From Candidatus Oleimmundimicrobium sp. (GTDB lineage: Bacteria; Actinomycetota; Aquicultoria; UBA3085; Oleimmundimicrobiaceae), in assembly GCF_030651595.1 (NCBI RefSeq), contig NZ_JAUSCH010000084.1, positions 1,338-65,337 on the forward strand: 64,000 nucleotides of DNA, written 5' to 3'. Of this stretch, positions 633 to 18,847 are shown piece by piece. Within the stretch, counting starts at the first letter, position 1. Each line of letters begins with the position of its first letter. Under the pieces are notes generated by a model that saw only the letters and a list, made by a program, of their open reading frames with translations, was not told the origin of the DNA and ran no database searches. The position numbers and the translations under genes were made by a program.

Positions 633-2612
633 CTATCGACCGATGTTCGTTTCTTTTTCTTTAACTAGACGGGAGAGTTCTTCGGCCTCGAGTTCTTCCA
701 GCTTTATGTATTCGCCACCACAGGCGTTCGCTAAATCTTTGGCAAGCCCGAGGTTTAGGAAATCGTTTTCAGTGTCGATAACCAAGCTTTTTATTTTTGC
801 TTCGGCGATCCTTTCCGCGATTTCCCTGGCTTCCTCAACGGCATTTTTTTCGTTTATGGAGACGTTTGCTTTCCCGTCGGTTATTAACACCATAAGAGGA
901 AGGGTTTTCTTGTTCTTGGCCAGTTCCTTCTCAAAGGTTTCAAGAGCCAGGGTCAATCCGTGGGCTAAAGGGGTCTTTCCTCCCGTGGGAAGCTTTTTGA
1001 GATAATTTTGAGCGTTCTCAACGTTATCCGTTAACGGAAGCAGAAGCTCCGCGCCCTTTCCCCTGAAAGTTATAAGTCCAACCTTATCTCGTCTTTGGTA
1101 GGCATCAACGAGGAGCGAAAGGACGGCTCCTTTCGCAGCCACCATTCTCTCTTTTGCGCCCATGGAGCCGCTGGCATCGGTCACAAAGAGCATGGCTGAA
1201 CCAACTTTCTTTTCCCGCACCTTCTGGCGCAAATCCGATTTCTCTATTTTTAAACCGGCTTCCCCGTTTTTCTTTCCACCATTTCTGATGGCGGCAGCTC
1301 GTATCGTTGCATCGAAGGCGATGTCGGTTGTTTTGTCTTTTGGGATGACGCTTCGAACATATCTCCCCGATTTTGACTCCGTGACGCTTTTTGCTCTTCT
1401 TCCTCCGGTTGCGCGGGGGATCTTATCTTTTGGAATTTTGATTTCCTTCGTTTTAAAAGGGGCGCCAACGTCAAAAGTTTTTGAAGATGAACCATCCGGA
1501 ACCCCCTCTTGCTTTTCTTGATTTTCCGACGGTTCTTGCGGTTTTTCTTGCTCTTGCTCGGGCTTGCTTTGGTTTTCCTTATGCTTTTCGATGGTTTGCT
1601 CCAGCTTTTCCTGGTCCAACTTCTGCTCCTCAAAAGGCTTTCTCTTCATCCTGTGAGGCAGGGCGAGCTCAGCGGCTTCTTTCACATCTTTCTCGGTTAC
1701 TTCCCTTCTTTGATGAAAGGCGGCGATAGTTTTAGCCGTCTTCATCATCACGATGTCGGCTCTGTGTCCGTGCACGCCCATCTCCACGCAGATTTCGGCT
1801 ATTAAGTGCAGCATATCGTCGGATATCTCTGTCTTAGGCAGGAGTGCTTCGGCGGCCAGGACTTGACGGCGCAAATTTTCTTGAGTGTCTTCCCAGCGAT
1901 GGCCGAAGGAATGGGGGTCGTTTTCATAGCTCATTCGCCTCTTAATTATCTCCACCCTTTCTTTTGTATCGTTTATGCCCTCGACTTCGACACAGAGGGC
2001 GAACCTGTCCAAAAGTTGTGGCCTTAAGTCTCCTTCTTCGGGGTTCATCGTTCCCACCAGTATAAAGTGGGCAGGGTGGGAGAATGAGACACTTTCCCTC
2101 TCGACGGTGTTGACTCCCATTGCGGCGGAGTCCAGCAGGATGTCAACTATGTGGTCATCGAGCAGGTTCACCTCGTCAACATAAAGGAAGCCGCGGTGGG
2201 AGTCCGCCAGAATCCCCGGCTCAAAACGTTTTTCGCCATGTTTTATCGCATGCTCTATATCAAGAGTTCCTACTACTCTATCCTCCGTGGCATTGATGGG
2301 GAGGGTAACCACCTTCATTTTCCGGTTGGAGAGGGGCAGTTTGTCTTCAATTAGCTTTTTTTCAAGACAGTGGGGGCACATTTCTGCTTCAGTGTGAGGG
2401 TTACAGCCAAAGGGGCAGCCCTCGACCACTTCTATTTCGGGCAAAAGGTCGGCAAGAGCGCGAACGGCGGTTGATTTGGCAGTTCCTTTTTGGCCCTTGA
2501 TGAGTACCCCGCCGAGCTTGGGGTTAATGACATTTAAAATCAGGGCCTTTTTCATCTTATCCTGTCCCACAATTGCGGTGAAGGAATATACTTTACCAGC
2601 TAAACAACTCAT
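633..2612 (-). CDS. Fused ChlI/ChlD-type chelatase subunit (AAA+ ATPase plus acidic/Pro-rich linker plus C-terminal VWA/MIDAS)
   Basis: Walker A GQKGTAKST and a Cys-rich insert CPFGCNPHTEAEMCPHC. Middle linker rich in KPQEPSENQEKQ. C-terminal VWA with DASGSM MIDAS. Adjacent to a CobN homolog. Confidence 0.85.
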   Translation of the reverse strand: MSCLAGKVYSFTAIVGQDKMKKALILNVINPKLGGVLIKGQKGTAKSTAVRALADLLPEIEVVEGCPFGCNPHTEAEMCPHCLEKKLIEDKLPLSNRKMKVVTLPINATEDRVVGTLDIEHAIKHGEKRFEPGILADSHRGFLYVDEVNLLDDHIVDILLDSAAMGVNTVERESVSFSHPAHFILVGTMNPEEGDLRPQLLDRFALCVEVEGINDTKERVEIIKRRMSYENDPHSFGHRWEDTQENLRRQVLAAEALLPKTEISDDMLHLIAEICVEMGVHGHRADIVMMKTAKTIAAFHQRREVTEKDVKEAAELALPHRMKRKPFEEQKLDQEKLEQTIEKHKENQSKPEQEQEKPQEPSENQEKQEGVPDGSSSKTFDVGAPFKTKEIKIPKDKIPRATGGRRAKSVTESKSGRYVRSVIPKDKTTDIAFDATIRAAAIRNGGKKNGEAGLKIEKSDLRQKVREKKVGSAMLFVTDASGSMGAKERMVAAKGAVLSLLVDAYQRRDKVGLITFRGKGAELLLPLTDNVENAQNYLKKLPTGGKTPLAHGLTLALETFEKELAKNKKTLPLMVLITDGKANVSINEKNAVEEAREIAERIAEAKIKSLVIDTENDFLNLGLAKDLANACGGEYIKLEELEAEELSRLVKEKETNIGR

Positions 2613-2632: not shown

Positions 2633-3382
2633 TTACTCAAAACCTTTTTCAAAGGTGCGCATACATAAGATTATCATACTCAAGGCAAATGATATCAGAA
2701 TCAATAAGATCAAACCGCAGCCCGATATGTTCCCGGTGAGCATTATTTTTCTTGAGATGTCGATGATGTAAGTGACCGGATTTATTGATGCCACACATCG
2801 CAACCATGCCGGCATCTTGTCCAAAGGCATCAGGGCCGAACTGGCCAAGAAAAGCGGCAAGCTAACTAAGCTTATAATTGCACCGAAACCGTGCAAATCG
2901 GCCACCTTGAAGGCGATAAATATTGAAAGGGCCGAGAGGCCCATGGCAAAGAAGAGGGCGCATCCAAATACCAGTAGAAGACCGGCAAGACCACCTTCCA
3001 TTCTCGCGCCGAGAATCCACGCGGTGGCAAGGACGGCCGAGAGATGAATCATTCCCTTGCTCATGGCCGCCGTAATTTTGCCCATGGCTATCACCGGCCG
3101 CGGAGTGGGGGTTGCGAATATCTTCTTTAAGTAACCGTAGATTTTGTCGGCCGAGGTGAGCAAGCCGCTTTGAAGTGAGGGCATCATGACGGACATCACC
3201 ATTATGCCGGGAGTTACATAATCCAAATACCTTCCTGAATTTGTTGACATGGGCAAAGAGCCGAGCACCGCCAACCAGGCGACGGGGCCGACTATTGAGG
3301 CAATTAAGTTTATTTTGAGTCTAAATAATATCTTGATATCGCGTTTACAGATTTTTATGAAGGCATTAAACAACAACATCAC
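2633..3382 (-). CDS. ABC-2 type transporter permease
   Basis: 249 aa, about 6 predicted TM helices. Overlaps the upstream ABC ATPase stop by 4 nt. Confidence 0.7.
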   Translation of the reverse strand: MMLLFNAFIKICKRDIKILFRLKINLIASIVGPVAWLAVLGSLPMSTNSGRYLDYVTPGIMVMSVMMPSLQSGLLTSADKIYGYLKKIFATPTPRPVIAMGKITAAMSKGMIHLSAVLATAWILGARMEGGLAGLLLVFGCALFFAMGLSALSIFIAFKVADLHGFGAIISLVSLPLFLASSALMPLDKMPAWLRCVASINPVTYIIDISRKIMLTGNISGCGLILLILISFALSMIILCMRTFEKGFE

Positions 3383-4377
3383 CCTCTCATTAGCTTTCTT
3401 ATAATTTTTTTGTGTTTTCTGGCCTCTTTGGGGCTTGGGCTCTCTTCGGTATCACCCGTGTATTTGATGAACACCTCGTCCAAGCCGGCTTGCTTCATCA
3501 AAACCGAGTTGATGGTGATTTCCTTTGAAGTCAAAACTTGCATGACCTCAGGCAAGAACTTGTCGCCCTCTTCCACTATTAGCTCCATTTCCGTTTCAAC
3601 GCATTTTTTGCTTTTAATTTTTTCCATTCCTTCCAGCGCTTCAGAAGCTTTCTCCACGTCCTCTTTCTCTATACGTATTCTAATTACATCTCCTCCAATT
3701 TGATTGGACAACGTGCTTGGGGAGCCCGAGCAAACGATTTTTCCCTTGGTGATTATGGCTACCCTGTCGCAAAGCGCCGCTGCTTCGTCCATGTAATGGG
3801 TGGTGATAAAGAAGGTAACCTTTTTTTCTTCTTTCAACCTGAGGATGAATTCCCATATCTTATGGCGGGCGGTGACGTCCAGGCCGATGGTGGGCTCATC
3901 CAGGAAGACGACTTCCGGTTGATGGATGAGAGCTTGAGCTAACTCCAGCTTTCTCTTCATTCCGCCGGAGTAAGTGGCTGCGGGATTATCCGCGACCTTA
4001 GAAAGTTCGAAGAATTTGAGGAAGTAATCCATCCTCTGCTTTCGTTTGGCGGGAGGTATGCCGTAAAGGGAGCCGAAGAGATCCAAGCTTTCCCGCGCCG
4101 TGAGAGCATCATCCACAGCCAATCCTTGAGGCACGTAACTTATGTGTTTTCTTACCTTGCGAGCCTCTTTTGCTATATCGAATCCACAAACCGATGCCTT
4201 TCCCCCGCTTTGTTTGAGCAGGGTGGTGAGCATGAGCACCGTGGTGGTCTTTCCCGCGCCATTGGGTCCGAGCAAACCAAAAGCTTCACCTCTTGGGATT
4301 TCGAGGTCGACATCATCTACCGCCAGGTTGCCGTCATAGTATTTGGTTAGTTCCCTTGCTTCAATTATTTTATCCAA
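3379..4377 (-). CDS. ABC transporter ATP-binding protein (DrrA-like, with C-terminal extension)
   Basis: Walker A GPNGAGKTT, signature YSGGMKRKL, Walker B VVFLDEPT. Confidence 0.85.
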   Translation of the reverse strand: MDKIIEARELTKYYDGNLAVDDVDLEIPRGEAFGLLGPNGAGKTTTVLMLTTLLKQSGGKASVCGFDIAKEARKVRKHISYVPQGLAVDDALTARESLDLFGSLYGIPPAKRKQRMDYFLKFFELSKVADNPAATYSGGMKRKLELAQALIHQPEVVFLDEPTIGLDVTARHKIWEFILRLKEEKKVTFFITTHYMDEAAALCDRVAIITKGKIVCSGSPSTLSNQIGGDVIRIRIEKEDVEKASEALEGMEKIKSKKCVETEMELIVEEGDKFLPEVMQVLTSKEITINSVLMKQAGLDEVFIKYTGDTEESPSPKEARKHKKIIRKLMRG

Positions 4378-4383
4378 TTGAGC

Positions 4384-5943
4384 TTATCCTCCACCATGCA
4401 ATTTTTTCTTTAACCTCTTCATTTTTTCTCCCCAGTCTTCGACCTCATCCATCGTAATTACGTCCACCGCTCCTCCTTGAAATTCGCCCTGGACGTCGCC
4501 GATTTTATCCTCCATCCAGCCCTCAATTTCCAGGTAAGTCTGTTTAAGTTGTTGCAGGACTTCGGGGTCGGCTTCCCATAGGTCCCTTTGTTCGGCCTCC
4601 AGAAGTCTTCGACCCACCTCCTCCAGGGCCCAGGGATTGTTTTCTTCAAAAAATTTCCGGTTTTCTTCATTCAATACGAATGTCTTGGCGATGTCATCGA
4701 ATATCCAATCGTCGACCTGTTCGGTGGTCGCTTCCCATCCGTAGACCCTACCTATTCTTTTGGAGATATCACCGGCTCCTTTGTAGCCATGACGCTTCAT
4801 TCCCTCGATCCATTTTGGGTTGAGAAGCTTTGTCCGCACTACGCGCCTAATTTCATCGGCCAAATCCCTTACTTCGATCTTGGCAGGGTTTCTTGTGTCG
4901 CCATAGTAGGTTTTTACCTCTTTCCCCGAGGCATTTTTAGCCGCTGCCGTCAGTCCTCCTTGATAAGAGAAATAGCAACAGCAGCCAAACAAGTCATATT
5001 CGTCGGTGACCGTCTTATTATAGGTCAAATCAACCGACTTGAGCTGTTTGAAGAAGGTTTCATGGGATTCTTTTCCAAACATCTCCTTGCCGTAGGCGTA
5101 GCCGCTCCAATAGGTAAAGATATCTGCCAGGTCCTCTTCCTCTTTCCACGCGCTGGCGTAGACGGCAAGATTTACGCCGGAGCCGTAGGTTCCCGGTCGG
5201 CTGCCGAAGATGCGGGAGGTAGCCTCCCTCCATGCCTGGGGGTCGGAGGGAGGAGAGCCGTCGAGTTGCTCGAGGGCGTGTTTGCGGACGAAGTTGAGCT
5301 CCAATGGTTCATCCAGCGAGGCAACCGCCGTTATTGCCTCGTCCAGATACTCCATGATATTGGGAAAGCAATCCCGGGTTATGCCTCCGATGCGGATGGT
5401 CACGTCTATTCTGGGTCGGCCGAGCTCTTCCAAGGGAATTATCCGAAAACCCTTCACCCGGCCGTTGCTCAGCCACTTCGGCTCCACGCCCAAAAGATAG
5501 AGAATCTGTGATACTTCTTCGCCGTCTGACCACATAATGTCGGTGCAGAAGAGTATCATGCCGCAGTTTTCGGGCATATTCCCCGTGTCCGCCACGTATT
5601 TTTCGATTAAACTGTTTGCAAGGCTTCTGCCCACTTTCCAGGCGGCCTTGGTAGGTATCTTGTATGGGTCGAGGGAGTAAAAGTTTCTTCCGGTGGGAAG
5701 AATGTCTGCTCTCCCTCGGGTGATAAGTCCCGAGGGCCCGCTTTCAATGTAGCCGCCGGAAAATCCGTGAAGAAGACTTTCAATTTCTTTTGAGGCGTCT
5801 ATTCTGGCTGAGATGTCCAAAACTTTCGACTTTAGAACCGAGAGTTTTTCGAGTGCTTCGGGATTGACAAACCTGTCGCCCAGGATGCACCCGGCAAGGT
5901 TTTTTAATTCCCTTAACTCTTGCGGGCTTAATTTTGTTTCCAT
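4384..5943 (-). CDS. cobN: CobN/Mg-chelatase H family chelatase, C-terminal 519-aa segment, in frame with the upstream segment
   Basis: Same frame as 5944..8304. It is separated from that ORF only by TAA followed directly by ATG. Combined length of about 1305 aa matches CobN/ChlH. Confidence 0.7.
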   Translation of the reverse strand: METKLSPQELRELKNLAGCILGDRFVNPEALEKLSVLKSKVLDISARIDASKEIESLLHGFSGGYIESGPSGLITRGRADILPTGRNFYSLDPYKIPTKAAWKVGRSLANSLIEKYVADTGNMPENCGMILFCTDIMWSDGEEVSQILYLLGVEPKWLSNGRVKGFRIIPLEELGRPRIDVTIRIGGITRDCFPNIMEYLDEAITAVASLDEPLELNFVRKHALEQLDGSPPSDPQAWREATSRIFGSRPGTYGSGVNLAVYASAWKEEEDLADIFTYWSGYAYGKEMFGKESHETFFKQLKSVDLTYNKTVTDEYDLFGCCCYFSYQGGLTAAAKNASGKEVKTYYGDTRNPAKIEVRDLADEIRRVVRTKLLNPKWIEGMKRHGYKGAGDISKRIGRVYGWEATTEQVDDWIFDDIAKTFVLNEENRKFFEENNPWALEEVGRRLLEAEQRDLWEADPEVLQQLKQTYLEIEGWMEDKIGDVQGEFQGGAVDVITMDEVEDWGEKMKRLKKKLHGGG

Positions 5944-8304
5944 TTAGCTCACCTTTCCTTCGTGTGCAAGAAACTCCCCAATGAACTTCTTTGAGTGTCC
6001 CTGAGTCTCTTCGAGTATTTCACCATAAGTTTTGCCGAAACCTTCGTGGTATTCAGCCGGATTATTTATTGCAAAGCTATAGTCTAAACCCATGAGCTCG
6101 AAGATTGTCTTTCGCATGGAGAATTCCTCATCTGAGTCATAACGGAGGATGGAATTTATGAATTCCACTCGGGCGTTGCTTTGAGGGAATTCTCCGAAGA
6201 CGTGCATGCCGTCTTGAATTTGGGTCTCTCTTAAGCGAGTTAAAACTTCGTGAGCCTGTTTGACGATTTCATCGAAGGACCCTTCTCCATGAATACCTTT
6301 TTCCTCGATCCCTATCTCTTTCTCCAATTTGGACGCCTTTATTTTGTCCACGATGAGGTGCTCCAGGGCATGAGCGCGAGCCGGATCGGTGATTTTAGCC
6401 TGGTTGTATTCGGCCAAATATCCTTCCAACTCCTTTAAGCTTTCGTAGAGACCGCTTTCGGTCATCACCGTCTGCATGTGGTCGATCAGCGTGGCGTAAC
6501 TTCTTCGCTTGGCGATGGTCCCCTCCGGCGGATTGTCGGCATTGTATATGTAGAGATGGGGAAGAGTACCGATTCCTATATCGGGATAACAGGAATCGGA
6601 AAGCCCTACCGCCTTTCCGGGCAAAAACTCCAAATTACCGTGGGTTCCCACGTGCACCACCACATCCGCTTCCCAGATCTCTTCCAGGTATCTGTAGGTG
6701 GCCAGATATTGATGGGTGGGAGGGCATTCGGGGTCGTGAAGTATCTTGCAGACCTGTCCGTCGCAGCGCGCCCCATAACACCCTCGTTTGGGTTGGACAC
6801 AGACCATAACATTTCCGTATTCTACCCCCGTGAGCACGATTTTTCCTTCATAAACCATGCCTTCACCGGGCGGCTCTCCCCAGGTGGAGGTCATTTTCTC
6901 TCTCACTTCTTCCGGCAACTTGTTCCACCACACCAGATATTTATCCAAGGAGAGGAGGGTGTGCGCCCCGCCCTTTGCAACTATCTCCTCTATGGGAGTC
7001 CATCTGAATTCGGAGATGGCTTTTCTCTCCATGATGGTCTCGATTAACTCTTTCCCGTTAGGGGGGTTTTTTTCGACCTTGTATCCTTGCTCTTTCATCT
7101 TTTGCATGATTTTAGCCACGCTTTCCAGAGTGTCCAAGTGTGCCCCACTGCCCACTGTGGCCTCCACGCTGGCGCAAGGGTTATTGTGCAGAACGAAGAC
7201 CACCTTCCGTTCTTGAGGCGGTTTTCTTCGGAGGCGCATCCATTTCTTGGCCCGCTCGACAATGTGATTGACCCGCTCCGGGATGGGCATATATTGTTCG
7301 AGAGTAACCCCGGTTTCCTCGTCGCTTGCTCTTGTTTGAACCCCGATTACCAGCGGCTCAATTATTCCATCAAATTCGGGCATGGCCACCGACCAGACTA
7401 TGTTTTCGGCAAGACCTTGAGCATCGGCTCTCCACTCCTCTTCGGTTTTGCGGTAAGAAACCAGGGGGTCAATGACCGGGACATCCAGTTTTTTAAGCAG
7501 TTCTACGCCTGCCTCCGCGCGGCCGATATCGGAACCTTCCGGCAGGGTTACCAGAAAGAAAGATTGCAAGTTGAGCAAGATATCGACGACCGATTTATCA
7601 TCTTTTGTCAGAAAAGCGGGAATTACCACATCATTTCCTTTGGCTCCCAGCTCATTTTCCTTAAAACCGTGAGAAAAGACAGGTATGATGTTGACATTCC
7701 TGTTTTCAAATTCACGAATAAGGGCATTCTCCACTTCGAGGTTTCCGTTTATCCAGTAAGAGCGATAAAAGAGGATACCCGCGGTGGGGTAGGAGGGGTC
7801 GAATTTCTTGTACCACTTAAGATAACTCTCAAGGTTGTCAAAGTGCGATGAGGCGTCGGGATGATAAATTCCCTGCCATGGCGTTTCTTGGAGCGGCTTA
7901 ACCTCCACCTCGATATCGAGAACCTCGCGGGCGATATAGGATAACAGGCTTTTCATGTTTTCCAGACCGTCGGTTACCAGATATTTATAGGCCGTGGCCA
8001 CTATCTCGGTGTTCACGGTGGAAAGACCCCAAAGAGACGGGTCGTGACCGAAAGAGACGGTGGGGGCGACCTTTCTAATTTTTTCGATTTCGGGGAGCAT
8101 CTCGCTCCAGACTTCGTTTGTGGTTGGATAAAGGAGGAGAACATCCGCCTCTTGTCGCAAATACTCCAGAAACTCTTCTCTTACCGGTTCATCCTCCAAG
8201 TCGCGCATGGAGCGGAGCTCAAGCTGTACGAAATCGAGCTCCTTGCTTGCTTGAACGAGTGTGGAAACGTGGCTTCCCCACATGATGGAGCCCACTTTTA
8301 TCAT
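5944..8304 (-). CDS. cobN: CobN/Mg-chelatase H family chelatase, N-terminal 786-aa segment
   Basis: CobN-like N-terminal region (MIKVGSIMWGSHVSTLVQASKELDFVQLELRS...). Ends at an in-frame TAA at 5944-5946, immediately followed by the continuing ORF. Confidence 0.7.
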   Translation of the reverse strand: MIKVGSIMWGSHVSTLVQASKELDFVQLELRSMRDLEDEPVREEFLEYLRQEADVLLLYPTTNEVWSEMLPEIEKIRKVAPTVSFGHDPSLWGLSTVNTEIVATAYKYLVTDGLENMKSLLSYIAREVLDIEVEVKPLQETPWQGIYHPDASSHFDNLESYLKWYKKFDPSYPTAGILFYRSYWINGNLEVENALIREFENRNVNIIPVFSHGFKENELGAKGNDVVIPAFLTKDDKSVVDILLNLQSFFLVTLPEGSDIGRAEAGVELLKKLDVPVIDPLVSYRKTEEEWRADAQGLAENIVWSVAMPEFDGIIEPLVIGVQTRASDEETGVTLEQYMPIPERVNHIVERAKKWMRLRRKPPQERKVVFVLHNNPCASVEATVGSGAHLDTLESVAKIMQKMKEQGYKVEKNPPNGKELIETIMERKAISEFRWTPIEEIVAKGGAHTLLSLDKYLVWWNKLPEEVREKMTSTWGEPPGEGMVYEGKIVLTGVEYGNVMVCVQPKRGCYGARCDGQVCKILHDPECPPTHQYLATYRYLEEIWEADVVVHVGTHGNLEFLPGKAVGLSDSCYPDIGIGTLPHLYIYNADNPPEGTIAKRRSYATLIDHMQTVMTESGLYESLKELEGYLAEYNQAKITDPARAHALEHLIVDKIKASKLEKEIGIEEKGIHGEGSFDEIVKQAHEVLTRLRETQIQDGMHVFGEFPQSNARVEFINSILRYDSDEEFSMRKTIFELMGLDYSFAINNPAEYHEGFGKTYGEILEETQGHSKKFIGEFLAHEGKVS

Positions 8305-8331: not shown

Positions 8332-9225
8332 TTACAGGACCTTTCCTGCCAGCTGATATATCTGTCTTAAAGAAGACGAATAAAATATCTCGTTTATATA
8401 AAGCAAATACATTATTTTAACCGCGGCTACCGCCAAACTTCCCGAGATTGCTCCTCCCGTAATTAGAAAATCGCTGAATTTATATCGGAGGTCTCTTAAG
8501 TGGCTTCGGGGAGCCGTTGGGTTAAACGCTCTACTCTCTATGGATAGTGCCAGGGTGCTTGCCCGGCGGACGGAGTTTGCCAAGATGGGGCGCAAGGTGG
8601 AGATGGCCGTTTTAAGTGAAGAGAATATTCCCACCTTGGTGGGTTTAAAACCTTTCAGTCTTTCCACAGCAATCACCGTCTTGGTCTCGGTAAGCACCGT
8701 AGGTATGAACCTTAAAGCGGTTATCGTCATGAAAGCGAAATTGTAAGGGATTTTTAACTTCACCAACCCCGTGAGCAAATCACGGGGCTCGGTGGTCCAG
8801 CATGTGAGCAACCCCAGGCAAATCATCGAAGAGAAGCGCAGCGCTTGAACGGCGCCATGGATGAAACCCTCCCGGTAGATGTAAAGCCCATCGGTTATGG
8901 CTCCCAAAATGGGCGTCTTTGAGGAGATGAGGACGAAAATTATTGTTCTGGGATGCCCCGCGTAGAACAGGGCCTGGCTGAACATCGCTCCCCACATTCC
9001 CAAAATCACGAAGATGGCCAACAGCCTTACCTTGTCCCAGGGCAGTTTGGCGAATATGCAAGATGAAATGGCGACCACAAATAGGATAAAGAGCGATTTC
9101 GGTTTGTCGAGACTAACCGCAAGAATCGACGCGCAGAGCAAGAAAATTATCTTTGCCCGGGGGTCGATTCGATGGATGAACGTTTTTTTTATGGATGGTT
9201 GGATCAGTGAGGCGGTATTAAACAT
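8332..9225 (-). CDS. ECF transporter transmembrane (T) component, CbiQ/EcfT family
   Basis: 297 aa polytopic membrane protein with an EcfT-like profile. Overlaps the upstream EcfA gene. Confidence 0.7.
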   Translation of the reverse strand: MFNTASLIQPSIKKTFIHRIDPRAKIIFLLCASILAVSLDKPKSLFILFVVAISSCIFAKLPWDKVRLLAIFVILGMWGAMFSQALFYAGHPRTIIFVLISSKTPILGAITDGLYIYREGFIHGAVQALRFSSMICLGLLTCWTTEPRDLLTGLVKLKIPYNFAFMTITALRFIPTVLTETKTVIAVERLKGFKPTKVGIFSSLKTAISTLRPILANSVRRASTLALSIESRAFNPTAPRSHLRDLRYKFSDFLITGGAISGSLAVAAVKIMYLLYINEIFYSSSLRQIYQLAGKVL

Positions 9226-10901
9226 TTGAGCGCATCCTCCAGTTCTTCTACCATAAAGATTGACTCAAGGCCCAGTTTTTTGGCGATGTGGTAAGAGTCG
9301 GGGGCGCTTAAGTTTGCTCGGCGCAAGATGTCTTCCTGTTCAAAAACACTTTCCGGCGAACCTTGAGCTATAATTTCTCCCTTATCCATAACCAAGATGG
9401 TATCGGCGTATCGTATCGCTGTTTGGACATCGTGGGTGCAAAAGACGACGGTCTTTCCCCCGTCCTTTGGGATCAAGTAGGCCATCATCTCTTCAATGTG
9501 GATTCTATCTTGTCCTGTGGTGGGTTCGTCTAAGAGAATTAACTTCGGTTGCATCGAAATGATGGAAGCCACGGCAGTCCGAAGCCTTTGGCCTCGGCTT
9601 AAAGCAAGGGGACAGTCGGCCATTAATTTCCCGATGGACATTGCCTCCAAAGATTGCCTGGCTAGCTCATCTGCCTTTTCCAAATGGAGATTCTGGGGAC
9701 CAAACATCGCTTCACCCCAAACGGTATCAGAAAGAAGCATAAGGTCTGGATTTTGGAATACCACTCCCACCTGGTTTGCTAAAGAGTAGGGGTTAATTTT
9801 GCAAGTGTCCGCGTTAAACACCCCAATCCTTCCCGAAGACGGCTTAAGTATGGCTGCCAAGTGAAGAAGAAGGGTGGTTTTGCCGGAGCCGTTGCTTCCC
9901 ATGAGGGCTACTACTTCACCTTCCCTGATGCTTAGGTCGATATTTTTGAGAACACACTCTCCCTTCTTCGAATAAGAGAAAGAAACATCTTTTGCTGAGA
10001 CGACCTCATTCCCCAGCCTCCGGGGAGGCCGATCGCGGCTAACGCTCGTTACTTTTTTAAGGAAGTCGTTTTCGATTCTACCTCGCACCGTCTCTATCGC
10101 TTGTTTGCTTGTCAACGGTCTTTCCGGGAAACCGAGAGCGAAGAAGAGTTTAATGGGCTCAGGGACCCTCAGGCCCAGATTTTCGAATATCTCGAGCTTG
10201 GCAAAAGCTTTCCCGGTGGGCTCATCGAGAACCAATTCCCCTTCATCCATCACGAGGATGCGGGAGGCCATATGCGCTATCTCGTGAATTCTGTGCTCGA
10301 CCAAAATCACCGTGATGTTTTGCTCCACGTTGAGCCGCTTTATGATGTCTAAAACTTCTTTGGCTCCCACGGGGTCCAATTGGCTTAGAGGTTCATCCAA
10401 AGCGAGGATGCGGGGCTCCATGGCCAGAACCGATGCTATGGCCACCCTTTGCTTTTGTCCTCCCGAAAGAGTGCCTATCTGAGCTTGACGCAGGTTTTTC
10501 ATACCCACTTTCCGAAGAGCCAAGTCGATGCCTCTATCTATTTCGTTTTTACCAAGGCACAGATTTTCCAGGCCGAAGGCCACTTCGTCCTCGATGACGG
10601 TTGAAAAGAGCTGGTCGTCTGGACTTTGGAAAACCATGCCTACTTGTTTGCAAATGTCTTGCATCTCGGCGGTATTGGTATCCAAGCCGTTTACTTTAAC
10701 GGTTCCCTCCATCTTCCCTCCCGATTGATGAGGGATGATGCCGTTTAAGGTTTTAAGCAAAGTGCTCTTGCCACAACCCGTGGGGCCCGTAAGCAGCACA
10801 AACTCCCCTGGCTGAACGCTCAAGTTAATTCCTTTAATAGTCAGTTTTTCTCTGCCCGCGTATGTGAATTTTAAATTGTCAATGGATAAAGAACCTCTCA
10901 T
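9204..10901 (-). CDS. ECF transporter ATPase with duplicated ABC domains (fused EcfA-EcfA', CbiO-like)
   Basis: Two Walker A motifs (GPTGCGKST, GSNGSGKTT). Two signature motifs (LSGGQKQR, LSRGQRLR). Two Walker B motifs. Confidence 0.85.
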   Translation of the reverse strand: MRGSLSIDNLKFTYAGREKLTIKGINLSVQPGEFVLLTGPTGCGKSTLLKTLNGIIPHQSGGKMEGTVKVNGLDTNTAEMQDICKQVGMVFQSPDDQLFSTVIEDEVAFGLENLCLGKNEIDRGIDLALRKVGMKNLRQAQIGTLSGGQKQRVAIASVLAMEPRILALDEPLSQLDPVGAKEVLDIIKRLNVEQNITVILVEHRIHEIAHMASRILVMDEGELVLDEPTGKAFAKLEIFENLGLRVPEPIKLFFALGFPERPLTSKQAIETVRGRIENDFLKKVTSVSRDRPPRRLGNEVVSAKDVSFSYSKKGECVLKNIDLSIREGEVVALMGSNGSGKTTLLLHLAAILKPSSGRIGVFNADTCKINPYSLANQVGVVFQNPDLMLLSDTVWGEAMFGPQNLHLEKADELARQSLEAMSIGKLMADCPLALSRGQRLRTAVASIISMQPKLILLDEPTTGQDRIHIEEMMAYLIPKDGGKTVVFCTHDVQTAIRYADTILVMDKGEIIAQGSPESVFEQEDILRRANLSAPDSYHIAKKLGLESIFMVEELEDALKCLIPPH

Positions 10902-10910
10902 TTAAAACAC

Positions 10911-12827
10911 CTATTCCATAATTTTTCTTAAACTGAATCCCAATCTTGTTCCCACCAAGGCACCCACCAAAGTGTATAAGAAGCCATCGATTACCGCGTA
11001 GGCATGAACGTACCAGGTCGTATAGTAAAGTCTGTATAAAAATATCGTGGTGCCGAAATTTATGTAAACGGAAAGGGTATCGGCCAACGCACAGGCAATT
11101 CCCACCGTGGCGAGAACACGCCATCTCTTTTCCGCGCCGATATCCGTCAGAATGCCGTTTTTCCTGGTCACGCCAAAGAGATATAGGGTGGTCTCGAGCA
11201 AAAAAATCAGAGATGCTTTCCACATGAGGGTGACGGGGCTAAAATTGCCGAGCACCACTCCCCCTAAAAGAAAACTTACACCCAAAGCGAGGGTCACCAC
11301 TCCCGGCCTGGGAATGAGGACCACAAGAGACATGATGAGAGCGTAAAGAATAATTTCATAAAAGATTCCTGTGATTAAGAAGCTAAAGGGGCCCAGGATG
11401 GCATGGAGGAAGTCCCAAAGGAGGGTGCCGGGCACATTGACCGTAATGAAAGTGGCCGTGCCAAAAAGAGCTATTATTACCAGCCATTTGGTCTTAAATC
11501 TTTTAAAAAATGCCTTTTGACAAATCATAAGATACCCAAGTCCCATCACTGTGATTAAAAAAGCTGCGAGAGTGATGAGCCCTGGGACCGGGTTTCTGGT
11601 GATGACATCGATCTCTTTTTGTTTTTTAGAGATGGCCTTGTCTGTCCCGAATATTTTAATTTCGCTCTCCAAAATATATTTACCCCCTAAGACCTCGGCC
11701 ACATCGACATAGATGGGAAAGGTTACTTTTTCTTCCGATTTCCCGGTCACCGAAACCACGGCGTAACTTACTCCCGTGCCGCCGCTTTTGGTGGAGGGAA
11801 CCCGAAAAGCCCGGGCTATCTTTTTTGTCTTGGGGTCCAGTACTTTGGATGTTACAAGAAAGACCACGTTATCTTGATTTTCATTTCTGACCGTGGTGGT
11901 GGCAAAAGCAAGAGGATGCTCGAGATAATCAATCTCTTTATCATCAGTTTTAAGTATTCTTTTTAAGAAATTGTTACCATCCACGCTTAAGGCCAGAGTA
12001 TTTTCCTTCTTACGAGAATCAAAATCTCCCTCGTCATCGGTGGGTACTTTGATTCCAGCTATATGAGCCAGGCCTTCAGCCTCTTTTAAAGAGATTACGC
12101 GCAGTTCTTTTTCTTTTTGGAACCGCGTGATTTTGTACTCGCCGTTTATCGTTTCCGCGACGGTGGCTTCTCCCCCGATTTTGTAAATGCCTGCAGCGAG
12201 AGTGGACGGCACTTCAAATTCCAGCAATTCGTTGAAGTTATCAAATTCTGTTACCAGCTTGCACTCGGCCGTGAGGATGTGACCTTCTTTTGTCTCTTTT
12301 GTCTCAAAAATTGAGGGTGTTCGAATCGGCTTGAACTCTTTAGGTAGAGTCAATTTAACGCTTGCTTGCAGGGGGTTGCCGGAGTAACTTTCTAAAAAAA
12401 CGGTGGCCGTGACCATGCTTCCTTTGACAACAAGGCTTCTCTCGTCGCTTTCCCCCGTCCCATAGGGGGCCTGAATAGAGAATTTAGCAACGGAGGTCGG
12501 CTTGGCTGGAGATTTTAACTCCTTTTCTATCATATCTCCGTTCTTGAGATTGATTTGGAATAAGTAAGACCGAGCCTCCTCCCAATCAAGAAAGAGGATG
12601 ACTTGTTTTGAGACTTCCGAATCGATGGTGGCCATGGTTATGAGCGAGCCATCCTGGTCAAAGACGCTCACCGAGGATATTGGGGTTTCCCTCGAAAGCT
12701 CAATTACGGCCCTATGGTGTCCAAACTCAATGGTTTTTATTTTTAAATCTTTCTCCTCTTTACCCCGGCAACCCGAAACCAAAAAGACAACCAGAGCTAA
12801 AATGAGGATTGTTTTGAGTTTTCTCAC
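10911..12827 (-). CDS. Large membrane lipoprotein: lipobox, about 400-aa extracytoplasmic domain, then a C-terminal block of about 6 TM helices (possible ECF substrate-capture/S-component-like protein)
   Basis: N-terminus MRKLKTILILALVVFLVSGC (lipobox). Beta-rich soluble domain. C-terminal hydrophobic helices (ITLAAFLITVMGLGYL...). Co-oriented and adjacent to EcfA/EcfT. Confidence 0.5.
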   Translation of the reverse strand: MRKLKTILILALVVFLVSGCRGKEEKDLKIKTIEFGHHRAVIELSRETPISSVSVFDQDGSLITMATIDSEVSKQVILFLDWEEARSYLFQINLKNGDMIEKELKSPAKPTSVAKFSIQAPYGTGESDERSLVVKGSMVTATVFLESYSGNPLQASVKLTLPKEFKPIRTPSIFETKETKEGHILTAECKLVTEFDNFNELLEFEVPSTLAAGIYKIGGEATVAETINGEYKITRFQKEKELRVISLKEAEGLAHIAGIKVPTDDEGDFDSRKKENTLALSVDGNNFLKRILKTDDKEIDYLEHPLAFATTTVRNENQDNVVFLVTSKVLDPKTKKIARAFRVPSTKSGGTGVSYAVVSVTGKSEEKVTFPIYVDVAEVLGGKYILESEIKIFGTDKAISKKQKEIDVITRNPVPGLITLAAFLITVMGLGYLMICQKAFFKRFKTKWLVIIALFGTATFITVNVPGTLLWDFLHAILGPFSFLITGIFYEIILYALIMSLVVLIPRPGVVTLALGVSFLLGGVVLGNFSPVTLMWKASLIFLLETTLYLFGVTRKNGILTDIGAEKRWRVLATVGIACALADTLSVYINFGTTIFLYRLYYTTWYVHAYAVIDGFLYTLVGALVGTRLGFSLRKIME

Positions 12828-12911
12828 AAGCCTCCAACCTCTTCATGTTAAAAGAAATTGAGAGAAGAGGAAATGGATATGATGGTTCCTCTTCTCTCAA
12901 AATGGGTCGCG

Positions 12912-14612
12912 CTACCTAACGAAATGGATTTTGTGATTTCCGCTTATGCTCTTATCTTCCATTTGAATCGGTGCCTCAATTGCGGCAATACTCTCTCCGT
13001 TGTTTGAAATTGTGGCAATGGCGCAGATGCCCTCCATGGGATAGAACCAGCACAATTTGTTGCTAGCGTTGCCTTCCTTTGTTAAGTCGAAGCACTGCAC
13101 GCCGGCCATGTCTTTGTTTTGACTTACCCAGTCATGAGCTACCCCAACCACCATGTATCGATTATCTTGAGAGAATAGCGGACAACCGATTTTTCCCTCG
13201 GCCTTCCATTTCCACTGAAGTTTCCCTTCGTTGGAATAGGCAAATATGGTTGTGGCGTCCGGATGAACCGCGGGCGGTGTACCGGAACATTTTGTCTTAT
13301 CCGCGGAGTAAGTGACGCTGGTGGCAAAGATGGCGTTGCCCTCATTGTCCACGTGAGTGCCGTTGCCATAGGCATAAATGGGAACCCCGCTTACCTCCTG
13401 AATCTTGGAAATTTCCTTCATCCACACGAGCTTGAGCTCGCCGGTCTCTTTTGCTTTAGTTAAGTCGAAGAGAAATCCTCTTCCATCTCCTGCCATGGCC
13501 GTGAAATGATTGCCGTCTGGAGAGATGCAGATACCATCCCAAATTCCCACGAATTTAAAGTACGGCTCCAGGGCATCGACCTTGTAGACGGCCATTTCCT
13601 TTCCGGTTTCTCCATTTAAGAGACGGACTGTGCCATCGGGATATTTTTCCTGAACCATGCCGTAGTTCCAGCTCTGATTGACGAACATCACCTTGTTTCC
13701 ATCCGGGGTGGCTACCACCTTCGGTACGCCTGTATCCATGGGTTCGTCTTCTGGGAACCGCCACTTTGTTTTGCCGGACTCCACATCAAACGCGTAGATG
13801 AAGCACTTGGTTTTGTAAACGGTTACCTCTTTGTCTTCCACCATCTTATTTTCTTTTTGTTTCAGTTGTCCCGCGGCGAAAGCCGTATCTCCTGAAACGG
13901 TCAGACTATAAATCATGGGGCGGTAGTACCAGTAGCTGTCGGTGCTCGTTCCCACGTCCTCTGATACTTTATATTTCCAAAGCTCTTCACCGGTTTTGGT
14001 GTTGAAAGCATAAAGATAACCATCGGCGCTTGCTTCGCCAGCGAGAAGTATCTCGCCGTTGCTAGAGAAAGCAACCTTTTTGCCGACTCCGTCGGGAACC
14101 TGGTAGTCCCAGAGCTTCTTTCCGGCGTTGTCGAAGACGTAGAACTTCCCGTCGAAACCCGCTATCGCGATATATTTTCCATCCGGCGAGACAATTGTTT
14201 CCTCAGAAGGGACGCCTTGCCAATCTCCTATCTGAGGAAGTTCTTCCAGGGAACCAAGTTTTGCTTCCCCGAGTTTATAGGCGGAAGGTTTCTTTGGAGA
14301 CTCGGTTTCTTGGGTTATCACGCCTTCCTCTGATTTTATTGTGATGGCGCATTTCTCATTTGGTTCCCATTCGAAGGAGGCCAGTATGGTCTTTGTGTTT
14401 GGCTGAGTGAAATCAACCTTTTTGTCGGCTACTTTAACTTCTGAGACATCGCGCGCTTCGCTTAAAACAAGAACTGCTCCCATTCTGGTAAACAGGGCCG
14501 ACTCTAATTTTGCGACATCCTTCTTTCCCGAACAGCCGCTTAGAAGGGGCATGATGAAGGCCACAGAAAGTATAATGCCGATTATTTTTGCCAATCTTTT
14601 TTTATATTTCAC
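12912..14612 (-). CDS. PQQ-like beta-propeller repeat lipoprotein
   Basis: Lipobox LLSGCSG. Recurring blade motifs (FDNAGKKLWDYQV, FNTKTGEELWKYKV, FDVESGKTKWRF, NEGKLQWKWKA). Confidence 0.7.
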   Translation of the reverse strand: MKYKKRLAKIIGIILSVAFIMPLLSGCSGKKDVAKLESALFTRMGAVLVLSEARDVSEVKVADKKVDFTQPNTKTILASFEWEPNEKCAITIKSEEGVITQETESPKKPSAYKLGEAKLGSLEELPQIGDWQGVPSEETIVSPDGKYIAIAGFDGKFYVFDNAGKKLWDYQVPDGVGKKVAFSSNGEILLAGEASADGYLYAFNTKTGEELWKYKVSEDVGTSTDSYWYYRPMIYSLTVSGDTAFAAGQLKQKENKMVEDKEVTVYKTKCFIYAFDVESGKTKWRFPEDEPMDTGVPKVVATPDGNKVMFVNQSWNYGMVQEKYPDGTVRLLNGETGKEMAVYKVDALEPYFKFVGIWDGICISPDGNHFTAMAGDGRGFLFDLTKAKETGELKLVWMKEISKIQEVSGVPIYAYGNGTHVDNEGNAIFATSVTYSADKTKCSGTPPAVHPDATTIFAYSNEGKLQWKWKAEGKIGCPLFSQDNRYMVVGVAHDWVSQNKDMAGVQCFDLTKEGNASNKLCWFYPMEGICAIATISNNGESIAAIEAPIQMEDKSISGNHKIHFVR

Positions 14613-14926
14613 GCAGATTGCGCTCCTTTCAAGTTTTTATTTACATTAACAACATTGCAAGCTTAAGTCCGAATTTAGCTTTTTGATTTTCACCTCCTTG
14701 GTAAACAAAACAGTTTTCGATAATTGTTGCCAAATAAAAAGACCACAAAAATCTCATCCAGCTTTTGAGCCGGGTAAGACCTTCGTGGCCTAATTTCGGA
14801 AAAAGTTCTAATTTACAAAGCTGCAACCTTCGGGTTGCTCTATAATAAGTTAGACAAATTAATAGCATAATTTTAAAAAGATTACAATGTTTTATTCAAC
14901 GATACTGCTTCGTCAGAATTTTTTAA

Positions 14927-16132
14927 ATGCGTGATTGGGGAGTTGAAGTGGAGAACAAAGGAAGAGATTTTTTGATTCCCGGGATAAAAAAGAACGTCTT
15001 CGTTTTAGGGTTAGTGAGCTTATTTACCGATATAAGCAGCGAGATGATATATCCTCTCGTGCCAATTTTTCTAACCAGTGTTTTGGGAGCGCCGGTTGCT
15101 GTCGTTGGTTTAATTGAGGGCGTTGCGGAGAGCACCGCGAGCATTTTGAAGACCTTCTCCGGCTGGCTTTCGGATAAATACGAGAAAAGAAAACCGTTTG
15201 TTCTGGGAGGGTATTCTCTTTCCGCTCTTGGAAAACTTCTTTTAAGCGTGGCTTTCGTCTGGCCCACGGTTTTAACGGCTCGCTTTGTGGACCGCTTGGG
15301 CAAAGGAGTTAGAACCTCAGCGAGGGATGCTCTTATTGCTGATGAAACTGATTCTATTAATCGGGGCAGAGCCTTTGGTTTTCATCGGGCGATGGATACA
15401 ACCGGCGCGGTTATCGGGCCACTAATTGTCTTAATCTTAATGGCTGTTTTAAAAGAACAATATCGATTGATTTTTTTGCTTTCTTTCTTTCCGGCTGTCT
15501 TAGGTGTTGCTCTTCTCTTTTTCTTTGTGAAAGAGAAAAAAAGACAAACTTTTAGCTCAAAAGAAGCTCCTCGTTTAAGCTTGGCCGGCTTTGACAAGAA
15601 TTTTAAAATGCTTCTTTTAATCGTGGTTGTTTTTGGGCTTGGCAACTCCAGCGATGTTTTTCTGATTTTAAGAGCAAAAAATCTAGGCCTTTCGGCTACC
15701 TTGGTTGTTTTAGCCTACGTTCTTTACAATGTAGTTTACGCATCTTTTTCGATGCCGGCCGGCATTCTTTCTGATAGGGTGGGAAGAAAAAAGCTAATGG
15801 TTGGCGGTTTTCTAATATTTTCCGGAGTTTATTTTGTCCTCGCGTTTATATCTAAATCCGTTTATATTTGGCCGCTTTTTGCCATATATGGTTTGTATAT
15901 TGCAGCCACAGAGGGTGTGAGCAGGGCTTTGGTAACTGACATGGCAGGGCCGGAGAATAAGGGTACGGCACTAGGGCTTTATCATACAGCGGTGGGGTTG
16001 GTAACATTTGCGGCCAGCTTGATTGCCGGCTTGCTCTGGACATACATTAATCCGTCGGCGCCTTTTATCTACGGCGGTTTAACATCATTATTAGCCGCAA
16101 TTTTATTTATTCTTTTTATGCCACTTGAGTAA
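14927..16132 (+). CDS. MFS transporter
   Basis: About 12 TM helices. MFS-like motif GRKKLMVGG. Confidence 0.75.
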   Translation: MRDWGVEVENKGRDFLIPGIKKNVFVLGLVSLFTDISSEMIYPLVPIFLTSVLGAPVAVVGLIEGVAESTASILKTFSGWLSDKYEKRKPFVLGGYSLSALGKLLLSVAFVWPTVLTARFVDRLGKGVRTSARDALIADETDSINRGRAFGFHRAMDTTGAVIGPLIVLILMAVLKEQYRLIFLLSFFPAVLGVALLFFFVKEKKRQTFSSKEAPRLSLAGFDKNFKMLLLIVVVFGLGNSSDVFLILRAKNLGLSATLVVLAYVLYNVVYASFSMPAGILSDRVGRKKLMVGGFLIFSGVYFVLAFISKSVYIWPLFAIYGLYIAATEGVSRALVTDMAGPENKGTALGLYHTAVGLVTFAASLIAGLLWTYINPSAPFIYGGLTSLLAAILFILFMPLE

Positions 16133-16220
16133 TTTTTTCATGTCGGGGCAGGTGAATTTTTGTTTTGTTTGTGCTATCTTTTTGTTAAAGTATCCTCTTT
16201 TGGGTGGTGTAAAAATCTAG

Positions 16221-18020: not shown

Positions 18021-18063
18021 AATTAGCAGTTAAAACATTATTCTTAAAGGAGAGATAACATTT

Positions 18064-18372
18064 ATGGACATTGGTAAATTAATGAAGCAAGCTAAAAAAA
18101 TGCAGCAGGAAATGGTCAAAATTCAAGAAAAATTGGCTGACGAACGGATTGAGGCGAGCGCCGGAGGTGGAGCTGTTAAGGTTGTTGTAAACGGGAAGCA
18201 GGAATTGCTTGATATAAAAATTGACCCCAGCGTTGTGGACCCTGATGATATAGAGATGCTTCAAGATTTAGTGCTTGCCGCTGCCAACGAAGCTCTTCAG
18301 CAAAGCAGGGATTTGGCCGCGCAAAGAGTTAATAGTGTTACGGGTGGCATGGGCATACCGGGCTTGACATAA
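18064..18372 (+). CDS. ybaB: Nucleoid-associated protein YbaB/EbfC
   Basis: 102 aa, MKQAKKMQQEMVKIQEKL.... Conserved dnaX-ybaB synteny. Confidence 0.9.
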   Translation: MDIGKLMKQAKKMQQEMVKIQEKLADERIEASAGGGAVKVVVNGKQELLDIKIDPSVVDPDDIEMLQDLVLAAANEALQQSRDLAAQRVNSVTGGMGIPGLT

Positions 18373-18847
18373 TATGGCAAATGCCTGCCCGCCTCCCCGC
18401 CTGCCTACGCCTATGATGCCGTTAGGCATTGGCGGGCAGGTGGCGGGGCAGATGGCTGATGGCAGATGGCATATAGAAAAAGAAGGGTAAAGGAAAAGTC
18501 AAAAGTCAACAAAGCTGGTGGCTTATGGCTGATAGCAGATGGCAAACAGGGTATGGAGTGTTGTAATAAGACCAGCAATCTGGCCGACAAACTACTGACT
18601 TCCCACCAAGAGACTACCGACTGATTAGTAGAGGATAAAGGGTAAAGGATTAAGCGGTAAGGATTAAGAAGCAAGTTGGAAATGTACAGGAGATTAAGTT
18701 GTGATTAGGTAGTAATTAAGTAGAGATTAAGAATAAGACCATTAATTTCAATGAATTACAATAAATTTCAATTAATTTCAAAGCAACTGAAGCCTAGTGT
18801 TTGAAGTCTGATTTATGCAAATTGTTAATGGTTAAAGGAGTGATTTT
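18373..18847. repeat. Intergenic insertion built of tandem degenerate heptamers plus a GC-rich imperfect hairpin; it separates ybaB from recR
   Basis: Heptamer runs GCAGATG GCTGATG GCAGATG, GCTTATG GCTGATA GCAGATG, GGATAAA GGGTAAA GGATTAA GCGGTAA GGATTAA, and AGTCAAA AGTCAAC. A block ccagcaatctggccgacaaactactgacttcccaccaagagactaccgactgat shares about 85% identity with 58232-58288. Confidence 0.7.

Follow-up and report, generated by a model that had tools for sequence, protein, structure and literature searches.

Transporters of the energy-coupling factor (ECF) class are defined by functioning without extracytoplasmic binding proteins; their S components have both termini in the cytoplasm, and group II systems routinely encode these components apart from the module. 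Some Nik systems have accessory extracytoplasmic components, NikK and NikL (PMC11247825). The dechelatase HmuS is membrane-anchored, periplasm-facing, and ATP-independent, while the function of CobN homologs in anaerobes and archaea is stated as an open question (PMC12583661). Here we describe a 64,000-nucleotide stretch of DNA from Candidatus Oleimmundimicrobium sp. (Actinomycetota, Candidatus Aquicultoria; contig NZ_JAUSCH010000084.1, positions 1,338 to 65,337; "the window" below), in which an ECF module, a class I chelatase, and an ABC-2 exporter are encoded in one transcription unit. The unit consists of nine minus-strand open reading frames (ORFs) that abut or overlap throughout from 14612 to 633 (~14 kb), and its first two genes encode a beta-propeller lipoprotein and a protein of 638 amino acids (aa), here called p638, the putative S component. 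We read the system as a dedicated ECF importer, group I in style, that belongs to a nickel regulon and is cotranscribed with a cytoplasmic class I chelatase, and we hold this reading at about even confidence; its target is probably nickel rather than vitamin B12. In the 5' to 3' order of the operon, the genes are as follows.

12912..14612, minus strand: beta-propeller lipoprotein, 566 aa (Pfam PQQ_2, 2.4e-19; lipobox LLSGC)
10911..12827, minus strand: p638, 638 aa, putative S component (lipobox LVSGC; three beta-sandwiches, a linker transmembrane helix, and a six-helix core)
9204..10901, minus strand: fused EcfA-EcfA' ATPase (EcfAA'), 565 aa (two ABC_tran domains, 5.6e-60; TIGR04520 ECF_ATPase_1, 1.1e-136; TIGR04521, 1.8e-129)
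8332..9225, minus strand: EcfT (CbiQ family) coupling subunit, 297 aa (PF02361 CbiQ, 7.2e-28; EcfT chains 4HZU and 4HUQ)
5944..8304, minus strand: CobN N-terminal part, 786 aa (PF02514 positions 1-656, 1.8e-211; NF004646, 986.8 bits)
4384..5943, minus strand: CobN C-terminal part, 519 aa (PF02514 positions 676-1089, 5.8e-189; NF004646, 865.7 bits)
3379..4377, minus strand: DrrA-like ABC-2 exporter ATPase, 332 aa (ABC_tran, 2.1e-30; DrrA1-3_C, 3.7e-6)
2633..3382, minus strand: ABC-2 permease, 249 aa (ABC2_membrane, 1.6e-26)
633..2612, minus strand: ChlI-ChlD fusion (AAA+ and VWA), 659 aa, the ATPase partner of CobN (TIGR02442, 839.7 bits)

An earlier note, made from the sequence of this stretch, had described the first four genes as a co-directional operon of 6.3 kb encoding an ECF-type importer, with a CobN-like chelatase and a ChlI-ChlD subunit downstream. 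All four ORFs are present, the PQQ-like propeller lipoprotein and the fused double EcfA and EcfT were recognized, and p638 is the sole S candidate in the operon; the operon itself, however, continues through abutting genes to 633. The chelatase genes were also found where expected, except that CobN is encoded by two ORFs and the ABC-2 pair lies between CobN and ChlI-ChlD. EcfT and the fused EcfAA' are bona fide; for EcfT, the solved chains 4HZU and 4HUQ were matched at 3e-15 over residues 15-253, nearly the full length. The locus thus has an EcfT with the CbiQ fold and two EcfA-type ATPase domains, as ECF systems do, but it also has a p638 ectodomain of ~400 aa and a co-conserved secreted or lipidated propeller, and because of these extracytoplasmic binding components we regard the system as a variant of the ECF class.

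Compared with dedicated group I ECF systems of the YkoEDC and MptD types, the locus is alike in encoding EcfT and a fused A-A' ATPase with their own membrane capture subunit, and the p638 core gives weak matches to PF09819, the YkoE-type family, and to PF09605/TIGR02185. It differs in the size and makeup of p638 (~640 aa), whose signal is cleavable or lipidated, whose extracytoplasmic beta-sandwiches take up ~400 aa, and which has one transmembrane (TM) helix more, and in the propeller protein co-encoded with it. Like NikMNQO/CbiMNQO, the p638 systems form one family with branches under nickel-related or cobalamin-riboswitch control (PMC3945884), and the S subunit would be N-out with seven TM helices; p638 differs from NikM and CbiM in having no sequence homology to them, no MHIPDG-type N-terminal end, and no conserved His. 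Diderm loci of the family resemble the Bacteroides BtuB-BtuG(-BtuH) and hmu heme (HmuY-HmuR-HmuS) systems in bringing together a surface or periplasmic capture protein, a TonB-dependent receptor (TBDR), a TonB/ExbBD energizer, and a CobN-family protein (PMC6143338, PMC10404256, PMC12583661, PMC6460266). B12 systems of the btu type are riboswitch-controlled, as are some p638 sister loci, and their capture protein BtuG is a propeller, whereas the inner-membrane step of the p638 system is an ECF module and not BtuFCD, and the window organism belongs to a monoderm-type phylum and has no TBDR. The likeness of the window propeller to B12-capture propellers, pointed out in the earlier note, holds for the architecture of a BtuG-like lipidated propeller alone, as judged from sequence, since its 35 PDB sequence matches include no BtuG chain. 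Unlike HmuS, the window CobN is cytoplasmic and has ChlI/D ATPase partners. Like the CobN-ChlID cobaltochelatase, the Rodionov-type alternative to CobNST, the window set combines a CobN large subunit with ChlI/ChlD AAA+/VWA partners and matches the NCBIfam models (PMC9227772); it differs in its setting, a strict anaerobe with the Wood-Ljungdahl pathway, in its split CobN, and in having no adjacent cob/cbi genes and no B12 riboswitch, and it sits behind a nickel-class leader with a transporter and an ABC-2 exporter. A literature search returned nothing specific on the p638 family, a nickel-uptake riboswitch, or a link between CobN and nickel. p638 founds an unnamed family, and a regulatory RNA that is possibly new is attached to the system.

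The argument for nickel begins with the operon leader, in which two features were located.

14732..14796, minus strand: leader terminator hairpin, a long stem followed by a U-run, ~120 nt 5' of the first start codon
14870..14899, minus strand: promoter-like TTGAAT-18-TAAAAT (consensus scan, 9 of 12 positions; weak)

The hairpin reads GGCCACGAAGG...UUUGUGGUC-UUUUUAUU, and the leader folds with a z of -2.4. Because the upstream gene is divergent, the hairpin ends nothing upstream and is a terminator of the leader; the promoter-like site, weak as it is, would give a 5' untranslated region of ~250 nt. Over the 314-nt intergenic region, relatives of 91% identity match the window at 97%. An inverted-repeat finder returned nothing in this region because the stem has G-U pairs, and a promoter/terminator scan found terminators not above shuffled expectation. 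The hairpin belongs to a motif class composed of RCCAYGAAGG, a variable inner hairpin, YUCAUGGY, and a U6 run, for which there is no family in Rfam 15 and no describing paper was found in the literature search; it sits near the start of transcription. In p638 relatives, the motif precedes propeller-p638 operons, ExbB-ExbD-TonB, an outer-membrane protein, TBDR-CobN, and a DUF3842-CooT pair; the copies in these relatives lie at the following positions.

L008: 7830-7893 and ~7931-7991
L009: 4302-4364 and 5269-5337
L010: 6258-6316 and 8175-8234
L014: 1986-2048 and 3162-3221, plus one on the other strand
L017: 1626-1681, plus one on the other strand
L054: 4198-4252

A covariance model (R1) of which the window hairpin is a training member scores that hairpin at 56 bits. 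Under a second model (R2), built from metagenome hairpins only, the window copy is the top-ranked hit in the 64-kb window (19.5 bits, E 0.037), and the leaders of L014, L009, L054, L010, L017, and L008 are recovered at E values of 1e-7 to 3e-3. The window copy carries a compensated stem change, CCACG…UGUGG.

An exact-pattern scan of metagenomes returned at least 120 stretches with the motif (loci L087-L206), and the following results hold among the matches listed. The spacer between the arms is unimodal in length (16-44 nt, mostly 22-29), as suits an RNA hairpin rather than a DNA operator. A k-mer analysis of the upstream region revealed an enriched -35 box 38-110 nt from the motif and no conserved aptamer. 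When the downstream ORFs were clustered and their representatives compared with solved structures, the genes behind the motif included those for LarB (7MJ0, 1.7e-73), LarC (2.2e-70), NikM2 (4M58, 2.6e-81, versus 1e-12 for CbiM), a Yersinia nickel-binding YntA-type protein (1e-103), and CooT (PF10133, 1.9e-21), as well as TBDR, ExbB/D, TonB, DUF3842, and CobN followed by an ABC-2 ATPase. Of the unique instances, 90 have 1 kb or more of downstream sequence; a nickel marker is present in 23 of them, TonB-system genes in 16, and CobN in 3. The motif is accordingly a candidate new nickel-regulon leader, which, if confirmed, would add a class to the known cis-regulators of nickel uptake and serve as an annotation marker for nickel regulons in Firmicutes-rich metagenomes. 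Small proteins of the DUF3842/CooT families are encoded directly behind the hairpin in L009 (4471-5217) and L054 (4386-4808) and in the metagenome loci L089, L094, L118, L151, and L183. CooT was formerly annotated as a predicted RNA-binding protein; this annotation and its position behind the hairpin make it a candidate reader of the hairpin.

The wider metabolism of the organism involves both metals under discussion. A Wood-Ljungdahl cluster at 33113-53195 of the window (plus strand) encodes FTHFS, RACo, a NuoF-like protein, formate dehydrogenase, CODH, ACS, and CdhD, and CODH/ACS is nickel dependent; because of these genes the organism needs corrinoids, as the earlier note had proposed, and nickel as well, and its demand for both is high.

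The AlphaFold model of p638, computed from an alignment of 108 homologs, is of high confidence (predicted local distance difference test score [pLDDT], 93.5; predicted template modeling score [pTM], 0.82). It shows, in order, a signal/lipobox helix, beta-sandwiches at residues 30-105, 114-245, and 254-409, a TM helix at 414-435, and six helices between 446 and 637; hydrophobic helices were likewise assigned from the sequence between residues 412 and 637. The lipobox and the ~400-aa ectodomain described in the earlier note therefore stand, while the TM count is seven in the model (a linker and a six-helix core) and not about six. With the ectodomain outside, helix 1 enters the membrane, and the six-helix core therefore begins and ends in the cytoplasm. 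In the model, this N-in/C-in core of ~190 aa has the size and topology of an S component. The TM core is also the best-conserved part of the protein in the family alignment, with near-invariant residues E545, R599, W605, Y606, and Y618 and Gly/Pro positions; no column is dominated by His, Cys, or Met in the 108 members. The first beta-sandwich is confined to the lineage of the window and part of its relatives, many others lacking it. It is shared with the propeller: residues 26-110 of p638 (12498-12752) and residues 25-111 of the propeller (14280-14540) are 31% identical over 107 aa (E 1e-8), and this common N-terminal domain is possibly a docking module. A conserved loop of the form P-x-D-x-x-G-x-x-D is found in the ectodomain at residues 262-270 (12018-12044), with an invariant P262 and 98% conservation at G267; by its sequence it looks like the calcium-binding loops of the dockerin/thrombospondin type.

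An exhaustive profile search placed 448 cluster representatives, nearly all full length, in the p638 family, of which a word-indexed search found only five clusters. In one-genome-per-species data (185,579 species genomes), relatives occur in 328 stretches. Most come from Candidatus Poribacteria, which are sponge symbionts; others come from Sporomusa ovata DSM 2662, Sporomusa acidovorans DSM 3132, and other Negativicutes, and further carriers are Syntrophobacterales, one Planctomycetota metagenome-assembled genome (MAG), Firmicutes MAGs, and Methanosarcinales MAGs. In RefSeq the window protein is a hypothetical protein, and as a query it had no Pfam, NCBIfam, or PDB sequence match. Weak matches were obtained with other members: PF09819 (ABC_cobalt) was matched by 8 of 136 (39 TM domains and 97 full or partial proteins; best, 2.2e-4), PF09605 (Trep_Strep) by 3 of 97 (best, 0.0019), TauE by 6 of the 97 scanned, and TIGR02185 (MptD family) by one, at E 0.086; one Sporomusaceae member is named "MptD family putative ECF transporter S component" by NCBI. 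These matches, weak as they are, converge on S-component families. A profile of the TM domain (A3) found no sequence in the PDB at E values up to 10, with 4M58 and 5X3X present in the library; a full-length profile (A2) found only six unrelated chains (E 0.3-1.4), and NCBIfam scans of the TM domains gave noise only. In hhalign comparisons, the TM profile aligned with NikM at a probability of 0.9%, no better than controls, and with a small ECF-S-like cluster, ExbB, and a Dpp-type permease at ~1% or less. The search against the CbiM, CbrT, and BtuM families that the earlier note had suggested gave no detectable sequence homology, either to these or to NikM, and none was seen to the solved CbrT or BtuM chains; the N terminus of p638 is a lipobox followed by the ectodomain, without the MHI(P/x)(D/E)G metal-binding end of NikM/CbiM. 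In Foldseek searches with both models, the PDB matches were confined to Ig-like arrays in tandem (e.g., integrin, transglutaminase, RbmA, and alpha-2-macroglobulin), which gives no information on the TM core. From gene context, topology, and the weak YkoE/MptD family matches, we infer that p638 is the S component of the ECF module.

The gene context was drawn from 80 p638-related loci, in which conservation of the cluster, a requirement set by the earlier note, is evident. A propeller ortholog adjoins the p638 homolog in ~75 of them, including the archaeal contig L006. Outside Poribacteria, fused EcfAA' and EcfT adjoin p638 wherever the locus extends far enough, with no other S candidate beside EcfAA'T. 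At least 11 loci have CobN next to the cluster, together with ChlI and/or ChlD (L001/L008, L009, L010, L012, L013, L014, L017, L031, L043, and L045). L001/L008 and L037 also have the ABC-2 pair, its ATPase gene alone was detected in L031, L049, and L085, and an ABC-2 ATPase also stands beside CobN or p638 in L101 and L198. Diderm members add a TBDR and/or TonB-ExbBD (L005, L009, L010, L011, L014, L017, L031, L037, L045, L049, L054, and L063); the TBDRs of L017 and of the riboswitch-controlled L049 matched CirA, PhuR, FecA, and BtuB about equally, via the plug domain, which does not discriminate the substrate. In L008, genes for CbiZ and a CN-hydrolase lie just upstream of the cluster.

Other branches of the family are controlled differently. 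Homologous operons of Negativicutes, Planctomycetota, and Poribacteria stand behind cobalamin riboswitches (RF00174, 99-125 bits). In S. ovata (L043) the riboswitch lies at 9421-9601 and p638 starts at 9917; riboswitches are also found before the operon in S. acidovorans and three other Negativicutes loci. The order in one of these three is riboswitch, TBDR, p638, EcfAA', EcfT, and propeller, with L049 showing riboswitch, TBDR, and p638, and that in the Planctomycetota MAG is riboswitch, ExbB, ExbD, TonB, propeller, p638, EcfAA', and EcfT. In Poribacteria, where a riboswitch was present in 5 of 5 loci tested, the unit consists of the riboswitch, a 469-aa secreted dockerin-bearing protein, p638, and the propeller (L015, L018, L021, L024, and L030; e.g., L021 8130-13638), with no Ecf genes within 10 kb. 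S. ovata also has separate riboswitches before a signal-peptide-bearing CbiK and a CobN-like gene. We infer that the branches behind cobalamin riboswitches serve cobalt or corrinoids. In the window, no Rfam family reaches the gathering score, and 14400-15100 gives only chance-level matches at E values up to 10. By covariance model, neither Cobalamin RF00174 nor the NiCo czcD motif matches the leader, and a cobalamin riboswitch, for which the earlier note had suggested a search, is absent from the window even at E values up to 10. The CobN-linked loci L008, L009, L010, L014, L017, L031, and L045 have no Rfam match either. A neighbor-joining (NJ) tree interleaves the CobN-linked and the riboswitch-linked clades.

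The chelatase genes of the window point to a cytoplasmic enzyme. Both CobN ORFs share one reading frame and are split by a TAA that is directly followed by ATG (5941-5946, minus strand). The split is kept in the same-lineage contigs L002, L003, and L007, and the L001 ortholog is a single 1301-aa protein, to which the CobN N-terminal part is 62% identical. Together, the halves span PF02514 positions 1-656 and 676-1089, while each half alone is below the NF004646 cutoff of 1468. Recoding of the stop codon in CobN was considered and rejected, as the stop is TAA and not TGA or TAG; a programmed frameshift in chlD (cf. PMC9227772) was likewise rejected, the ORF being continuous. The ChlI-ChlD fusion exceeds the cutoff of TIGR02442, "putative cobaltochelatase" (839.7 versus 779.45 bits), and over the N-terminal 340 aa it shares 65% identity with stand-alone ChlI proteins of L001. 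It is the sole chelatase ATPase gene in the operon, which has no separate chlI. Neither the CobN halves nor ChlD has a TM segment (CobN maximum KD19, 1.32). The locus therefore has, across both ORFs, the full-length CobN-Mg_chel domain and AAA+/VWA partner of a class I chelatase. It is not of the HmuS type (membrane-anchored, periplasm-facing, without an ATPase partner), as CobN lacks TM segments and ChlI-ChlD is present, and it lacks the regulation and gene neighborhood of a cobaltochelatase of B12 synthesis, as there is no RF00174 in the window and the neighbors are transport genes and not cob/cbi genes.

A working model for nickel acquisition can be outlined from these components. Transcription would start ~65 nt 5' of the hairpin, terminating under nickel sufficiency and reading through, via some factor, under nickel limitation. 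The propeller and the three-domain ectodomain of p638, lipid-anchored on the outer face of the cytoplasmic membrane and perhaps docked together by their shared N-terminal beta-sandwiches, would jointly hold the substrate; the six-helix core of p638 would act as the S component, with EcfT and fused EcfAA' powering import. The substrate would be nickel, most likely bound to an organic chelator. Split CobN and ChlI-ChlD might then use ATP to shift the metal into or out of the carrier, and the ABC-2 pair may export the metal-free carrier. We consider a chelated metal likelier than a bare ion because there is no conserved His/Cys, the core has conserved Arg and aromatic residues, diderm members have TBDR/TonB-ExbBD, the capture domains are large, and the chelatase is of the tetrapyrrole type.

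Several findings weigh against nickel as the target. The window hairpin has diverged from its class (CCACGAAGG / UUUGUGG), its score under the independent R2 model is only 19.5 bits, 47 of the 90 unique metagenome instances matched no query protein, and the motif class is tied to nickel through guilt by association with downstream genes. CobN and ChlI-ChlD match models named cobaltochelatase; CbiZ adjoins the cluster in L008, the closest distant relative; sister clades are under B12-riboswitch control; and the NJ tree sets the window clade (window, L008, and L005) next to a riboswitch-controlled Negativicutes clade. Cobalt or a corrinoid is thus a possible target of the window operon. In the form proposed by the earlier note, the propeller and ectodomain would bind cobalamin, cobinamide, or Co2+, the ECF module would import it, and CobN-ChlID would be a cobaltochelatase in B12 synthesis or salvage. 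Besides the model matches (TIGR02442 above its cutoff, NF004646 for CobN) and the tree, this explanation draws on the riboswitches directly upstream of homologous operons (L043, L049, L011, and all five Poribacteria loci), on CbiZ beside the cluster in L001/L008, and on the dependence of the organism on corrinoids. It holds at the level of the family, for the riboswitched sister operons, but fits this operon less well: neither the window nor the seven CobN-linked loci named above have a riboswitch, and a nickel-class leader stands instead in the window, L008, L009, L010, L014, and L017. In addition, there is no sequence homology to CbrT, BtuM, CbiM, or BtuG, and the CbiZ gene of L008 lies upstream of the leader and therefore belongs to another transcription unit. 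For the window operon we find cobalt or corrinoid capture doubtful.

The metal regulons that control the family, whether by nickel leader or B12 riboswitch, would also suit an importer of bare Ni2+ or Co2+, in which p638, like NikM and CbiM, binds the ion in free form, the propeller serves as a periplasmic metal chaperone of the NikK or CbiN kind, and CobN-ChlID consumes the ion for insertion. The modeled N-out, seven-TM topology of p638 resembles that of NikM/CbiM (4M58), the metallochaperone CooT lies within the same regulon, and the ectodomain loop PxDxxGxxD could hold a cation. Against this, none of the columns in the alignment of 108 members conserves His, Cys, or Met, hhalign against NikM stays at chance level, and TBDRs and ~1000 residues devoted to capture would be out of the ordinary for a free ion; we regard it as unlikely. 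Less likely still is that p638 is not an S component: together with the propeller it would build a complex at the surface or in the envelope, such as a factor for anchoring or assembly, and would do no more than use an ECF-like ATPase module or share its regulation. Such a complex would explain why Poribacteria keep p638 and the propeller without nearby Ecf genes, and it agrees with the generic Ig-like Foldseek matches and with the lack of a significant match to any S-component family. On the other hand, EcfAA'T adjoins p638 in all loci outside Poribacteria and is accompanied by no further S candidate, conservation within p638 is highest in the TM core, group II systems routinely have S-component genes apart from the module, and riboswitch and metal-regulon control fit uptake.

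Two generalizations can be joined into one bolder and rather doubtful proposal: that the RCCAYGAAGG hairpin is an undescribed, widespread leader of nickel acquisition (lar, nikM, yntA-type ABC, cooT, and TonB genes) and that CobN-ChlI/D of anaerobes and archaea are nickel-regulated, ATP-driven chelatases or dechelatases acting on imported chelates. The reader of the leader might be the metal itself or a small protein such as CooT or DUF3842; the substrate would be a metal chelate or a metallo-tetrapyrrole, for example F430-like or corrinoid compounds shed by neighbors, and would be imported by the p638/propeller ECF system, with the ABC-2 pump recycling the empty ligand. An ECF system with a 400-residue ectodomain on its S subunit and a near-constant propeller partner would alter the picture of ECF transport as free of binding proteins and suggest a new model of substrate hand-over, and the presence of CobN/ChlID in a nickel-regulon transport operon makes the question of CobN in anaerobes testable. 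Cultured carriers of the system exist in S. ovata DSM 2662 and S. acidovorans DSM 3132. The supply of nickel and cobalt limits acetogens, methanogens, and syntrophs, and the system thereby bears on the metal economy of anoxic communities.

Some further features of the window and of related loci were noted. Divergent from the operon lies one neighboring gene.

14927-16132, plus strand: MFS transporter gene (MFS_1, 9e-50)

This gene and the operon share the 314-nt intergenic region, and the same divergent arrangement is seen in L002 and L004. In S. ovata (L043 7913-9397), the riboswitched CbiK, which has a signal peptide and is predicted to be periplasmic, is encoded immediately 5' of the p638 operon, and CbiK homologs are present in L037 and L054. 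The 469-aa protein of the Poribacterial unit has a weak DUF5074 match and recurs in 60 loci. Finally, the Selenomonadales MAG locus L010 carries two complete tandem copies of the system (546-6072 and 8347-21545), one in the Sporomusa-type order (p638, EcfAA', EcfT, and propeller) and the other of the window type with CobN, TBDR, and ChlI.

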